Positions 60,190 through 63,897 of a stretch of 64,000 nt of DNA are shown one piece after another. The DNA comes from an uncultured Gammaproteobacteria bacterium. Its GTDB lineage: Bacteria > Pseudomonadota > Gammaproteobacteria > UBA9214. A model generated the notes under the pieces. The model saw only the letters and a list, made by a program, of their open reading frames with translations, was not told where the DNA came from and made no database searches. A program made the position numbers and the translations under genes. The stretch covers positions 157,884 through 221,883 of the forward strand of contig CAVVHS010000003.1 in the NCBI GenBank assembly GCA_963748215.1. Direction: 5' to 3'. Each line of letters opens with the position of its first letter. Position 1 is the stretch's first letter.

Positions 60190-60263
60190 TGGCGGATCGT
60201 CTAACGGCAGGACAGAGGACTCTGACTCCTCTAATCTAGGTTCGAATCCTAGTCCGCCAGCCA
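60190..60263 (+). tRNA. tRNA-Gln(CTG)
   Basis: TGGCGGA/TCCGCCA acceptor stem, anticodon arm GAGGA-CTCTGAC-TCCTC, GGTTCGAATCC, encoded CCA. Confidence 0.95.
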
Positions 60264-61240
60264 TACAGCAAAAGGGCCCATCAGGGCCCTTTTGCTGTAT
60301 TGAATGGTGCGGACTGGGATGAGAACCTCAGGTTCGACAACCGAGCGAAGCGAGGTTGAACGTCGCCGCGTGCGGCGGCGGCCCGCAGGGCGAGGGGCGC
60401 TTCGCCCCGAGTAATCCTAGTCCACCAGCCAACAAATAACCCCGCCCTTGTGGCGGGGTTATTTGTTGGCTGGTGGTCGATGGGTGAGGAGCTAGTCAGG
60501 TTCGACAAAATCGCCGGGAGGCCGCTCTCGCACATCCCTGTGTTTCGCGGCACTCGTTCATCCTGAACATCGCGGTTTGAACAGTGTCGCAACGCGACGC
60601 TGGCCCGAAGAGGTGCGCGGGGCGTAATGCCCCGCGTAGATAAACTCCCGGAGTAATCCTGGTCCGCCATGCCAAATCATGCAGCGAGTCCGGGAGGACT
60701 CGGCTGTATGGTTTTAAAAATAGTGGCCCATCAGGGCCCTTTTGCTGTATTGAATGGTGCGGACTGGGATGAGAACCTCAGGTTCGACAACCGAGCGAAG
60801 CGAGGTTGAACGTCGCCGCGTGCGGCGGCGGCCCGCAGAGGTGCGCGGGGCGTAATGCCCCGCGTAGATAGCGCCCCGAGTAATCCTGGTCCGCCATGCC
60901 AAATCCTGCAGCGAGTCCGGGAGGACTCGGCTGTATGGTTTTAAGAATGGTGGTCCGTGCGGACGTGGCTGTTGGTCGATGGGTGAGTAGCTAGGCAGCG
61001 GTTGCCGATGCAGGAGTCGTAGGGTGCGTTTTACGCACCGTTACTGGTGCACGGAGTGCACACTGCAGCATGCAATGATATCTCTGTGTTCTTCCGTGGC
61101 CAGTATCCTTTACGCAATGAGTAGGGATAAGGTGAAACCGCGTAGCGGTCGAGATACTGGCCTGAGTCATGCCCGGAGCCATCCTGGTCCGCCACGCCAA
61201 ACCATGCAGCGAGACCGTGAGGACCCGGGTGTATGGTCTA
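60264..61240 (+). repeat. Array of tRNA-3'-end-linked structured repeats (three complete units + one degenerate)
   Basis: GGTTCGACAA at 60331, 60499, 60781; GAGyhATCCTrGTCCrCCA..CCA at 60409, 60651, 60878, 61176; 60275-60388 identical to 60725-60838. Confidence 0.9.
61019..61066. repeat. GTAG-type REP doublet (same family as 15722-15894)
   Basis: GTAGGGTGCGTTTTACGCACC + GGTGCACGGAGTGCACACTGC. Confidence 0.8.
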
Positions 61241-61365
61241 ATGAATGCTAAACCCACCCTTGTGGTGGATTTGGATCGAGTGACGGGCTGGTCGGATGCA
61301 GCAAGCGTGAGATCGTTTATGCAGGCTCTGCGTGAGCGCAGATCCGGACAACCGGTGTTTCGAGG

Positions 61366-63897
61366 TCAGTCAGTGGTATAGCCAAATTGCTCGATCGTGG
61401 GTCCGAGTATGGGAATGATGCGCTGCACGGCTTCGTGATAGTTGCGGTAACGATAGAGTGAGGACGTATAGATCTTCTGCGTGACCTGCTCGTAACTGGC
61501 CGTTTTAACCACGCGTACACTCTTGTGATGTTGCAGGCAGGCATCACTCCAGGGTGCGCCGATGTAGTCCAGAACCCGGCGTGTCACCGCTTCCTGCTCC
61601 GCGACCAGGTCTTCGTAGTGTATTTCCAGGAACTCGATGCCGATGCTGCGGTAATGTAGCAGCATGTCCATCACCTGCTTGTAATGCAACGCGGTACTTT
61701 CGAAACTCGAAGTGTAGCGGTGTGCCGGTTTGAAGTTGGAGAAAAAGGCAGACAGGCAGGAATTGAATGGATGCCGGGATATGTGAATGACCGCTGACTG
61801 TGGAAACAGCAGCTTGATCAGGCCGGCATGTACTGCATTGTGCGGCATCTTGTCGGTCACCCAGCGGGTGTTGCTGTCGACCACGCCCAGTGTCTTGATG
61901 CCGGACAGGTAATAATCACGCATTTCCAGCAGGTGTTGCTGTGTCAAAGGTGCCTCCCTGTCCAGCAGGAAGGCAGGGTAGGCCAGCTTGCTGCCCGTGA
62001 TTTCATGCCCCTTATCCCCGGACAGGTCATTGATAAACTCGAGCTCGCCGGCCGGTGCGATCTGCGGATGCGAGCCGAGGATCTGTTCCAGCAGGCTGGT
62101 GCCTGAGCGCGGGAAGCCGACAATGAACACCGGCTGCAGGCTGTTTTCATCTGCCGGGACCATCAGGCTGCTCAGCCGCTGCCAGTTTTCCGCACTGAAT
62201 GTTGCTTTCCAGCGGGTAAACTTCTGCTCGTCCTTCTTCGGGTCATAGACCCTTCCGGCATAGCTGTTCTTCGCCTGGTTGGCTTCTTCAAAGGCAGTAA
62301 ATGCCTCCGGGTACTGGCCCAACTTGTCCAGCACAATGCCGCGTTCGAACAGATAGCTGGCCTTGATATGTTTGTTGTCGATAGCTGCGCTGTCGGTCTG
62401 GTTAAGAATGTCCAGGGCGGCTGTATGATCCTTGCGCCGTCTTGCCAGCATGGACTGGAGAATGGCGAGCCCCGAATAGCTTGCATCGAATTCGGCGGCC
62501 TTTTTTGCAAGCCGTTCGGCTTCATCGAGGTTGTGCACGTGTTCTTCCATCTGGCTCCATGCCTGGTAAAGACGCAGGCCGGCCGCATCATGTAACTCTG
62601 CCAGATGGAACTGGGCTCGTGCCGCGTCGTACTGCCCGAGATCTGAATAGTGTTTTCCAAGGCCTATATAACCATCGGGCATGCCGGGCTGGTGTTCGAT
62701 CACATAGCGCCATTCGGCGGCGGAAGCACCCCTGTCGCGCTGACTGGCGAGCAGGTGCGCTCTCGCGATATGCGCATGTATATCCCAGGGGGCAAGCACC
62801 AGGGCTTTCCCGATATACTCTGCGGCCTGCTCGACCTTGTCCTCGCTCAGCATGGCCTTGCCCAGGCCCGCGAGGCCCTTTGCCGAGTTCGGATTGCTTT
62901 TCAGGGCGCGTATGAAGTGCTCGACAGCCTCGTTCTGGTCGCCGAGCTCGTGCAGCCGGTAAGCCATGTTGCAGTGAACGGTCGAATTTTCCGGGTCCAG
63001 CAGGAGCGCCTTTTCGTAGTACTTGCGGGTATTGTCCGAATCATTCAGCCGGTCATACAGGTTGCCAAGACTGACGTAGGCGCCGGCATAGTCAGGGTCG
63101 AGCTTGATGGCACTTTCGAGGTATTTGCGTGCCATGTCGGCATCGCCGTGGTCGATCATCAATGAACCGAGGTTGGTAAGAAATTCCGGGTTGTCCGGCT
63201 GCAGTTTTGTTGCGGTCCGGAATTCGGCTTCTGCCTCGCCGTAGCGTTCCTGTTGTTGCATCGCCGCACCCAGGTTGTTATGCGCGAACGCAAACGTCGG
63301 GCTGATCTTCAGTGCATCGCGGTAGCGTTGTTCCGCGGTGTCAAGGTCGCCCAGCAGCTGGCTGACCGTGCCTGCATTGACGTGCAGCTCGGGATCGGAG
63401 CTGTCGAGCTGGAGTGCCTTTTCATAGTGTTCGAGTGCACCCAGCAGGTGATTGCCGGATTTATAGATATTGCCCAGGTTGTTCCAGGCGTCGGCGAGTT
63501 GCGGATCCAGTTTAATGGCTCGCTGGCCGCTGAGGTAAGCTTCTTCATCCCTGCCGAGACTGTGCAGTGCCATGCACAGGTTGCTGTGTGCCAGGGCGTT
63601 ATCCGGCTGCAGCGCGATTTGCTGTTCGAATCGCTCGATGGCAAGTTCCGGCCTGCCGGTCTGCAGGGCAATGACGGCGCTGATCTCGGCAAGGCTTGCA
63701 TCGCCGGGGTTGCTGCGCAACAGCTGCTCGGCCAGTTGCCCGGCGGCTTGCAGGTTGCCCTGCTGGTAATGCCGGATGACCTGGTTCAGCTGGTCGGGCG
63801 CTGCGGTGTACCCTGCGCTGTCGGAGCCGCAACAGCGCTTGAATTTCTTGCCGCTGCCGCAGGGGCAGGGGGCGTTCCTCGACTGGGCGGTATGCAT
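61366..63897 (-). CDS. SEC-C + TPR + sulfotransferase protein
   Basis: CPCGSGKKFKRCC, many TPRs, FIVGFPRSGTSLLEQIL, DKMP, YEDLV, TASYEQV. Confidence 0.93.
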   Translation of the reverse strand: MHTAQSRNAPCPCGSGKKFKRCCGSDSAGYTAAPDQLNQVIRHYQQGNLQAAGQLAEQLLRSNPGDASLAEISAVIALQTGRPELAIERFEQQIALQPDNALAHSNLCMALHSLGRDEEAYLSGQRAIKLDPQLADAWNNLGNIYKSGNHLLGALEHYEKALQLDSSDPELHVNAGTVSQLLGDLDTAEQRYRDALKISPTFAFAHNNLGAAMQQQERYGEAEAEFRTATKLQPDNPEFLTNLGSLMIDHGDADMARKYLESAIKLDPDYAGAYVSLGNLYDRLNDSDNTRKYYEKALLLDPENSTVHCNMAYRLHELGDQNEAVEHFIRALKSNPNSAKGLAGLGKAMLSEDKVEQAAEYIGKALVLAPWDIHAHIARAHLLASQRDRGASAAEWRYVIEHQPGMPDGYIGLGKHYSDLGQYDAARAQFHLAELHDAAGLRLYQAWSQMEEHVHNLDEAERLAKKAAEFDASYSGLAILQSMLARRRKDHTAALDILNQTDSAAIDNKHIKASYLFERGIVLDKLGQYPEAFTAFEEANQAKNSYAGRVYDPKKDEQKFTRWKATFSAENWQRLSSLMVPADENSLQPVFIVGFPRSGTSLLEQILGSHPQIAPAGELEFINDLSGDKGHEITGSKLAYPAFLLDREAPLTQQHLLEMRDYYLSGIKTLGVVDSNTRWVTDKMPHNAVHAGLIKLLFPQSAVIHISRHPFNSCLSAFFSNFKPAHRYTSSFESTALHYKQVMDMLLHYRSIGIEFLEIHYEDLVAEQEAVTRRVLDYIGAPWSDACLQHHKSVRVVKTASYEQVTQKIYTSSLYRYRNYHEAVQRIIPILGPTIEQFGYTTD

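Follow-up and report, generated by a model that had tools for sequence, protein, structure and literature searches.

The 64-kb stretch of DNA analyzed here (the window), which lies on contig C3 of the genome of an uncultured gammaproteobacterium, carries a single tRNA gene, tRNA-Gln(CTG), and 3' of this gene an array of four repeated units placed in tandem and on the same strand (Table 1). The array is a member of the RtT family: the family model RF00391 matches positions 60298-60431 with 59.4 bits (E 4.7e-9; gathering threshold, 45 bits), and the tyrT units of Escherichia coli, which have the same parts in the same order and also match RF00391, indicate that the family was already known. In each unit the first element repeats, in inverted form, the T arm and the acceptor 3' strand of the tRNA, and as a whole the unit can be read as this inverted arm, the 5' strand of the T stem with TTCGA, a core of about 75 nt that usually forms hairpins H1 to H4, then AT with the 3' strand of the T stem, the acceptor 3' strand and CCA, and finally a further hairpin.

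Table 1. Features of the tRNA-Gln(CTG) locus in the window
Feature	Position	Strand	Evidence
tRNA-Gln(CTG) gene, array anchor	60190..60263	+	ARAGORN; Rfam tRNA model, 59.4 bits
Terminator-like hairpin after tRNA-Gln, 17-bp stem, TTTTGCTGT inside 3' arm	60263..60300	+	inverted repeat; -31.1 kcal/mol
Unit 1	60301..60431	+	RF00391, 59.4 bits; core-only model, E 3.5e-13
Unit 1, 5' arm	from 60306
Unit 1, GGTTCGA	60331-60337
Unit 1, four-hairpin core	60337-60412
Unit 1, tRNA 3'-end copy	60413-60431
Perfect 25-bp hairpin, terminator-like, including the CCA end of unit 1	60422..60476	+	inverted repeat; -50.5 kcal/mol
Unit 2	60467..60674	+	repeat comparison, folds; core-only match at 60559-60637, E 7.7e-4
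Unit 2, 5' arm	60467-60498
Unit 2, GGTTCGA	60499-60505
Unit 2, junction GGAGTA/ATCC	60651
Unit 2, tRNA 3'-end copy	to 60674
Imperfect hairpin after unit 2	60674..60714	+	-26.8 kcal/mol; repeat family
Unit 3, recombinant	60748..60901	+	RF00391, 29.2 bits (under threshold); core-only model, E 1.5e-7
Sister hairpin after unit 3	~60901-60941		-22.4 kcal/mol
Unit 4, diverged	60966..61199	+	repeat comparison (5' arm 91%, 3' part 80%); folds; metagenome contig depth
Unit 4, 5' arm	60966-60998
Unit 4, REP-like hairpins replacing H1-H3	61011-61067
Unit 4, long H4 variant	~61125-61175
Unit 4, tRNA 3'-end copy	61176-61199
Sister hairpin after unit 4	61201-61237		-14.0 kcal/mol

In three units the T loop is split as GGTTCGA/ATCC (here and below the slash marks the place of the core), with GGTTCGA starting at 60331, 60499 and 60781; the 3' junction, G(A/C)G(T/C)(A/C)ATCC, starts at 60409, 60651 and 60878 and, in a diverged form, at 61176. 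Copies of the last 19 nt of tRNA-Gln are found at 60413-60431 (95% identical), 60655-60673 (79%), 60882-60900 (79%) and 61180-61198 (74%). The first unit begins 38 nt 3' of tRNA-Gln, the 3'-end copies are spaced by 168, 242, 227 and 298 nt, and every regenerated 3' end in the array is followed by a hairpin. The second half of the hairpin that follows the tRNA recurs at 60725-60750, where a terminator scan flags it (60725-60738), and the 3' arm of the hairpin at the end of unit 1 overlaps the 5' arm of unit 2. The minimum-energy fold of unit 1 (z -4.3) is closed by a stem of 14 bp and contains five hairpins, unit 3 reaches z -4.6, and none of 200 shuffled sequences folded equally well. The core of unit 2, of about 150 nt, is enlarged by a nested repeat of about 60 nt. 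These results bear out the positions and the split T-loop layout given in a preliminary description of the array. Unit 4, of which that description recognized only a degenerate 3' end, turned out to be a whole, diverged unit whose 5' arm is 91% identical to that of unit 2. The inverted arm at the start of the units is absent from that description. Only one of the four units exceeds the 45-bit threshold; units 2 and 4 gave no RF00391 match at E<=10, and unit 4 no match to the core-only model introduced below.

The array lies beside two genes that we take, by eye and from the sequence only, to be rplM and rpsI. The downstream open reading frame (ORF), at 61366-63897 on the minus strand, was assigned by a domain scan to a TPR-sulfotransferase gene; its 843-aa product combines a SEC-C motif at the N terminus with many TPR repeats and a sulfotransferase domain at the C terminus, and the gene is the conserved right-hand neighbour of the array in several relatives. 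The reported lack of an adjacent integrase or transposase held for what was examined, i.e. this one ORF and the tyrosine recombinase domain PF00589, which has no match on contig C3 and none near the units.

The similar sequences that had been mentioned behind the tRNA genes of other γ-proteobacteria correspond to RtT itself. E. coli K-12 has 18 RF00391 matches, which follow tRNA genes for Tyr, Lys, Ser(GGA), Arg(ACG) and Pro(CGG). The RtT units of tyrT-tyrV resemble those of the window in being tandem, on the same strand and directly 3' of the tRNA, each ending in a tRNA 3' end with CCA, and they share the inverted arm (GGATGAGAACC), the split GGTTCGA/..GAGTA/ATCC and the order of hairpins with GNA loops. 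In contrast, the host tRNA in the window is Gln and not Tyr, the units are mosaic, only one of the four passes the Rfam threshold, and a terminator-like hairpin follows every unit whereas none lies between tyrV and the E. coli units. The E. coli annotation includes a small ORF, tpr, in an RtT unit, and the RNA rttR, of 171 nt, which begins 8 nt after tyrV and stops exactly at the CCA of a unit. A weak RtT-like match (E 0.9) near 5S and thrV/rrnD of E. coli K-12 (NC_000913.3, 3423260-3423382; L102:161-283) ends in ..AACTGCCA, closer to the 3' end of 5S rRNA than to a tRNA end.

Folding was analyzed in 51 distinct units from the same genome and its genus. In the consensus helices 96.1% of the cells are paired, and the covariation among inserts that had been proposed as a check is evident: 105 cells show changes on both sides of a pair, compared with 25.2 +/- 5.3 in shuffled sets (none of 500 reaching 105) and 3-15 when the partners were slid. 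Exactly four hairpins are predicted in 29 of the 51 units. Of the 168 hairpin loops predicted, 107 are GNA triloops; the corresponding figures are 27 of 2188 for shuffled sequences and 0 of 142 for the antisense strand. Altogether, 97 of the 168 are GNA triloops closed by a C-G pair, and in the E. coli units 20 of 74 loops are GNA triloops. Hairpin H2 contains 22 G-U pairs and not a single A-C, which identifies the tRNA-sense strand as the one that folds. The sense strand of the core thus folds into about four covarying hairpins, mostly with C-GNA-G triloops. In the passages of a review (PMC13037366) that deal with GCGNAGC mini-hairpins, the DNA form is described as far more stable than the RNA form and as a poor substrate for SSB binding, and such mini-hairpins are placed at single-strand DNA priming sites and in N4 promoters. 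This stability is a hint, and no proof, that the structure of the core counts as DNA. A duplex statistic for the closing stem was discarded: the median was 14.5 bp for 5' against 3' arms and 12.5 bp for swapped arms, a control that carries no information, since one tRNA type is common to many units.

The distribution of the units was explored with RF00391 and with a model of the core only (R1), built here without the tRNA flanks. In the genome that contains the window, RF00391 gave 25 matches at E<=1, seven of them over threshold, and the core-only model 39. Occurrence at other tRNA genes, another point that had been raised, was found: the cores lie behind 12 or more tRNA types, and besides Gln (two genes) the hosts include Glu, four Ser, two Arg, Lys, Val and Pro. 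The units track the adjacent tRNA, given that 22 of the 25 matches end in a copy of the last 19 nt of the resident tRNA (<=4 mismatches, counted by eye) and the other three are truncated; the mismatches are three or fewer except in unit 3 of the window, whose Rfam match stops before the true 3' end. An RtT match was present in 21 of 24 sampled genomes of the genus, in 2 of 16 other families (first draw) and in 27 of 151 sampled genomes of the class, eight of these over threshold. Units are associated with 10 of 13 tRNAs that have the T loop TTCGAAT and with 2 of 30 other tRNAs (Fisher p 8e-6, the tRNAs not being independent). Two atypical T loops retain their own bases beside the core (TTCGA/../TTCC and TTCA/../AATCC). 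At the sensitivity of blastn, there was no sign of phages or plasmids as carriers: unit 1 retrieved two Salmonella records among the phages, and among plasmids short chance matches only.

The evidence that sets the core apart from the rest of the unit comes from sites found with and without it. The core lies directly 3' of GGYT(C)GA and before an A, always in the same orientation relative to this motif, and there is no target duplication beyond a single ambiguous A. One case is that of tRNA-Lys (C9:310571), behind which eight more tRNA-Lys halves are spread over about 98 kb, seven of them among the RF00391 matches and the eighth at C9:408761; each half begins exactly at the anticodon loop, is surrounded by conserved arms and carries a core in the T loop. 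A search of the genus with one of these junctions recovered the same arms around empty T loops, around filled ones and around one with a remnant. In the alignment of the eight P-arm/tRNA-Lys-half/P'-arm junctions, five are empty, two are filled and one retains a 10-nt remnant, and the boundary of the insertion is exactly GGTTCGA/ATCC. As the plain form of the junction is the tRNA sequence itself, this form must be the ancestral one.

Cores occur in a variety of other places. A duplicate of the whole tRNA-Gln(TTG) shows no difference from the intact gene as far as GGTTCGA, at which point a core begins. Upstream of tRNA-Ser(TGA) and tRNA-Ser(GGA), copies of the leader and of tRNA positions 1-22 end in GGTCGA or GGTTGA and are followed by a core, and in tRNA-Ser-like copies of two relatives the D loop and the T loop alike hold cores. 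The only insertion seen outside tRNA sequence is at C6:837421-837491, where a core interrupts a fragment of a Y2_Tnp pseudogene; a paralogue of this fragment (C6:845131), 99.8% identical over 500 nt, lacks the core and reads GGTTCGA/AAAT, and the filled copy differs by two substitutions exactly at the core junctions. One core subfamily, CAAAATCGCC...GGAGTA, was found in T loops, in one D loop and at the non-tRNA site. In all, cores were located in trailer copies, in displaced tRNA halves at island junctions, in a duplicated tRNA, in the D loops of 5' copies and in one dead non-tRNA gene. Pairing between a guide in the core and its target was considered, as GAAC is conserved after H1 and the target contains GTTC; this idea is not supported, given that GAAC does not change at the D-loop targets (GGCTGA, GGTTGA), except for one GGAC/GGTC case. 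The orientation of units with respect to replication gave no signal (nine co-directional and two head-on, against 34 and 9 for all tRNAs).

From the pattern of empty and filled sites, which is observed directly, we infer that the core acts as a non-autonomous insertion module, one that is directed to a target sequence and survives only in dispensable pieces of tRNA; transposition-like copying, or templated conversion with very short homology, could lie behind its insertion. The preliminary description had offered two alternatives, a non-autonomous element that inserts at tRNA 3' ends and an array that tRNA-maturation enzymes process into small RNAs. Both are partly supported, as they point in the right direction and neither is complete. 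Insertion holds for the core alone, by virtue of the empty and filled pairs, and not for the whole unit; tRNA sites are indeed used, but the target is GGYT(C)GA/A rather than the tRNA 3' end, and is also found in D loops and once outside tRNA DNA. Processing of the units into small RNAs would fit what is seen in E. coli.

At the tRNA-Gln locus the units recombine with one another, and in consequence their number shifts quickly. Unit 3 is a mosaic in which positions 60725-60838 equal 60275-60388 of unit 1 (114 nt, 100%), whereas its 3' part is 92-94% like unit 2. The rpsI/tRNA-Gln locus was matched in 29 of 37 genomes of the genus, with unit types judged by eye. Gain and loss of units among relatives, which had been suggested as a comparison to make, is apparent, with zero to four units at the locus: decayed remnants only in L064, L083, L085 and L087, one unit in most loci, two in L062, L070 and L082, and four in the window. 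In L062 and L063, rpsI is 98% identical to that of the window, yet the unit types and the array content differ. Metagenome DNA contigs, which prove that a form exists and say nothing on its frequency, join 60274 to 60725 (run X1, the two-unit form), 60392 to 60653, and 60952 to 61259 (both from run X2, the latter without unit 4). These data show that the arrays grow and shrink by recombination among their repeated parts.

Other small repeats are superimposed on the array. The REP-like hairpins of unit 4 (starting GTAGGGTGCG) reach a depth of 400-1169 in metagenome DNA contigs, and a second short repeat at 61125-61181 a depth of 84-310; as these depths are far over those of the flanks, both are very abundant repeats of the community. 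The nested element of about 60 nt lies within H2 of unit 2 (60520-60575) and is also present in the cores of L066, L067, L069 and L070; contig depth is in excess at 60498-60554, and this may represent another small insertion element, with the core itself as its target.

The tRNA-Lys region deserves a separate description. Between C9:310571 and C9:408779, tRNA-Lys(TTT) is followed by about 98 kb that comprise eight cassettes of 1.5-25 kb, each ending in a tRNA-Lys half with conserved arms (motif GCGGGAnTTTTGCGGGA). The cargo includes AbiE, a Wadjet-like JetD/SMC set, PIN and ParE toxins, MscK, an Mrp antiporter, APS reductase and GGDEF-EAL genes; no integrase gene was found in these cassettes, and the region looks like an integron-like accretion of integrase-less cassettes. 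The smallest cassettes in relatives consist of a single Fic gene (L133). A second array belongs to tRNA-Arg(ACG) and extends over C6:807000-884400 and C5:2300-2742, with the tRNA and the array on different contigs; the arm motif is the one seen behind tRNA-Lys, and it is present both around a plain tRNA half at C6:884362 and after the tRNA at C5:2666, where a 96-aa integrase fragment lies beside it. Elsewhere, at C2:97718-98302, there is a tyrosine-recombinase match (350 aa) with one in-frame TGA.

We consider it probable that RtT units are made from the sequence of the neighbouring tRNA and that their core is a non-autonomous, sequence-directed insertion within a recombining array. Copying of the core between sites would depend on a sequence-directed process working on or through single-stranded nucleic acid, and the core would persist only where no needed tRNA is destroyed; read-through transcripts would be trimmed at each regenerated tRNA 3' end, by analogy with RttR of E. 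coli.

Several points weigh against this interpretation. Outside tRNA genes there are 94 empty GGTTCGAA sites, which implies that the motif alone does not attract insertion, or that selection purges the insertions. The two junction substitutions at the non-tRNA site could reflect templated copying with donor flanks, i.e. gene conversion and not transposition, and ordinary gene conversion between long homologous arms could be the route by which the empty and filled Lys junctions spread. The interpretation does not account for the origin of the inverted 5' arm, and a blastn-short census revealed no plain inverted copy without a core. The loop statistics depend on predicted minimum-energy folds, and because the genomes of one genus are related their counts overstate independence. 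With regard to a partner enzyme, a co-occurring HUH or recombinase gene had been proposed as something to look for, and the scans made tied no transposase or integrase to the core; reverse transcriptase genes were not searched for. Six matches to PF01797 (Y1, HUH) were located in the genome and the flanks of two identical copies were read. These are RAYT-like genes encoding 244 aa, 99.9% identical, at C9:315959-316801 and C9:333292-334134, with inverted GGGGACAGACCACGTTTTC repeats at their flanks; they lie about 1 kb from two Lys-type units, but given that they carry their own REPs we regard the proximity as a coincidence. The insertion in the Y2_Tnp fragment suggested a link to IS91, but Y2 is present in the genome only as fragments, and the case is better understood as a dead gene that tolerates an insertion; in the 14 control genomes, which include E. 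coli, no Y2 was seen. Core ends that lie 0.2-4 kb apart were also scanned; none of the pairs was found to enclose an ORF, with one long case of 1154 nt, at C6:847993, left over.

The explanation that best survives beside the preferred one considers the units as a vertically inherited, functional RNA of the tRNA trailer, similar to RttR, that duplicates only locally and whose presence or absence results from deletion and gene conversion. The E. coli rttR annotation, which ends at the CCA of a unit, agrees with it, and, in the passages of PMC4986893 concerned with RtT, such RNAs are reported on Northern blots of Actinobacillus pleuropneumoniae beside Asn and Lys tRNA genes. The covarying stems are also consistent with it, as is the Gln-type closing stem, in which the 5' arm pairs with positions 59-72 and leaves NCCA free, like an acceptor/T minihelix, and at least one unit is kept at the tRNA-Gln locus in nearly every genome of the genus. 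However, array content differs sharply between L062 or L063 and the window in spite of the similarity of rpsI, a terminator-like hairpin stands ahead of every unit and no promoter-like site was found on the plus strand. Moreover, cores also occur where no closing stem is possible (island junctions, D-loop copies, the pseudogene), and in Glu units the closing stem is short and the fold reaches only z -1.15. In two metatranscriptomes the assembled contigs extend to 60259 and beyond that point cover repeat parts only (shares of 0.19 and 0.14); as contigs cannot show absence, this speaks neither for transcription of the units nor against it. We regard this explanation as unlikely.

A more improbable option is that the core represents a miniature HUH-type single-strand DNA element, like the palindrome elements (PATEs) of IS200/IS605 or an IS91-like element, cut in trans 3' of the target motif and 3' of its own ...GAGTA end. 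Insertion 3' of a short asymmetric motif, the fixed orientation, the lack of duplication and the hairpins at both ends of the core speak for such an element, as do the C-GNA-G mini-hairpins, which make up 97 of 168 predicted loops and whose stability, according to the passages on them in PMC13037366, is much greater in DNA than in RNA. Nonetheless, no cognate transposase was found, E. coli K-12 has its 18 RtT matches and no Y2 match, the two junction substitutions at the non-tRNA site are unexpected from clean cut-and-paste, and the replication-orientation signal is no stronger than that of the tRNA genes themselves (9:2 vs 34:9).

It is very improbable that the units are att scars left by repeated entry of tyrosine-integrase islands into the tRNA gene. 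About 10 plain tRNA 3'-half scars do exist in the genome, and the two long integrase-less cassette arrays behind tRNA-Lys and tRNA-Arg have conserved arm motifs (GCGGGAnTTTTGCGGGA) around tRNA halves; but the window units are only 168-298 nt apart with no cargo between them, their T loop is split whereas true scars run uninterrupted from the anticodon loop to CCA, the 5' part of the unit is inverted and not direct, and the contig has no integrase match. Native trailer units come directly after a plain scar at C6:884.4 kb, and this juxtaposition shows that scars and units are different things. Finally, the idea of an assembly artefact or a chance repeat has practically no weight: such repeats often break assemblies, and many matches in relatives lie at contig ends, but the same architecture recurs at 39 places of this genome and is shared by 21 of the 24 genomes sampled from the genus, as well as by E. 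coli K-12, whose genome is finished, and independent metagenome contigs cover most of the array.

The core, understood as a sequence-directed insertion, shares features with several known systems. The REP/RAYT and IS200/IS605-derived palindrome elements are small, hairpin-rich, non-coding and strand-specific, and lie beside a short specific sequence without target duplication. Like PATEs, the core is inserted 3' of a fixed short target, on a fixed strand and without duplication. Unlike them, it was not matched by a Y1 gene with the same ends (the two of six copies read at their flanks have a different REP, GGGGACAGACCACGTTTTC), and it has about four hairpins, not one or two. Tyrosine integrases use att sites in tRNA genes, and integrase-less, CIME-like elements accrete at such sites in a site-specific manner. 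The window shares with these systems the copies of the tRNA 3' part behind the gene, and behind tRNA-Lys and tRNA-Arg cores lie inside such junctions; in contrast, an att scar is a direct tRNA half without interruption, accompanied by arm sites and cargo, whereas in the window units the T loop is split, the arm is inverted and cargo is absent. The core also differs from a classical MITE in that the inverted arms are copies of the local tRNA, which change with it, and in that there is no duplication at the empty and filled pairs. In Thermoproteales, transposed tRNA introns occupy T-loop positions; for the bacterial RtT core we know of no splicing system. The Dada DNA transposons of fish target tRNA genes (PMC8869645, PMC3706591). 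The core resembles Dada and the introns of Thermoproteales in its use of one fixed place within the tRNA sequence and in its survival via redundant copies, and differs in being bacterial and non-coding, given that Dada is eukaryotic and encodes a transposase and the archaeal introns are spliced by an enzyme.

The RtT family and its linkage to tRNA genes were already known; what is new is the evidence for the core as a non-autonomous module whose insertion is directed to a target sequence. A literature search, which did not extend to the original 1991 RtT paper, found no description of the core as an insertion element. The passages of PMC4986893 on RtT mention one function, citing Bosl and Kersten (1991), namely that RtT affects how amino-acid limitation is responded to. 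We also put forward, tentatively and as a possibility that we rate below even, a broader proposal: RtT cores may be a tiny mobile element of an unrecognised kind, about 75 nt long and made of clustered C-GNA-G mini-hairpins in single-stranded form, with neither terminal inverted repeats nor target duplication, which homes to GGTTCGA/A (found in the T loop of many tRNAs) and to look-alike D loops and is copied by a host or trans-acting activity, the arrays being a by-product and RttR only a transcript. If the core is a module inserted at a target sequence, this would account for units that trail many different tRNA genes in distant bacteria, for unit ends that always match the local tRNA and for the fast change of the arrays. 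The question would be testable in E. coli, and annotation pipelines would have grounds to treat matches to the RtT small RNA as repeats and not as regulatory genes.

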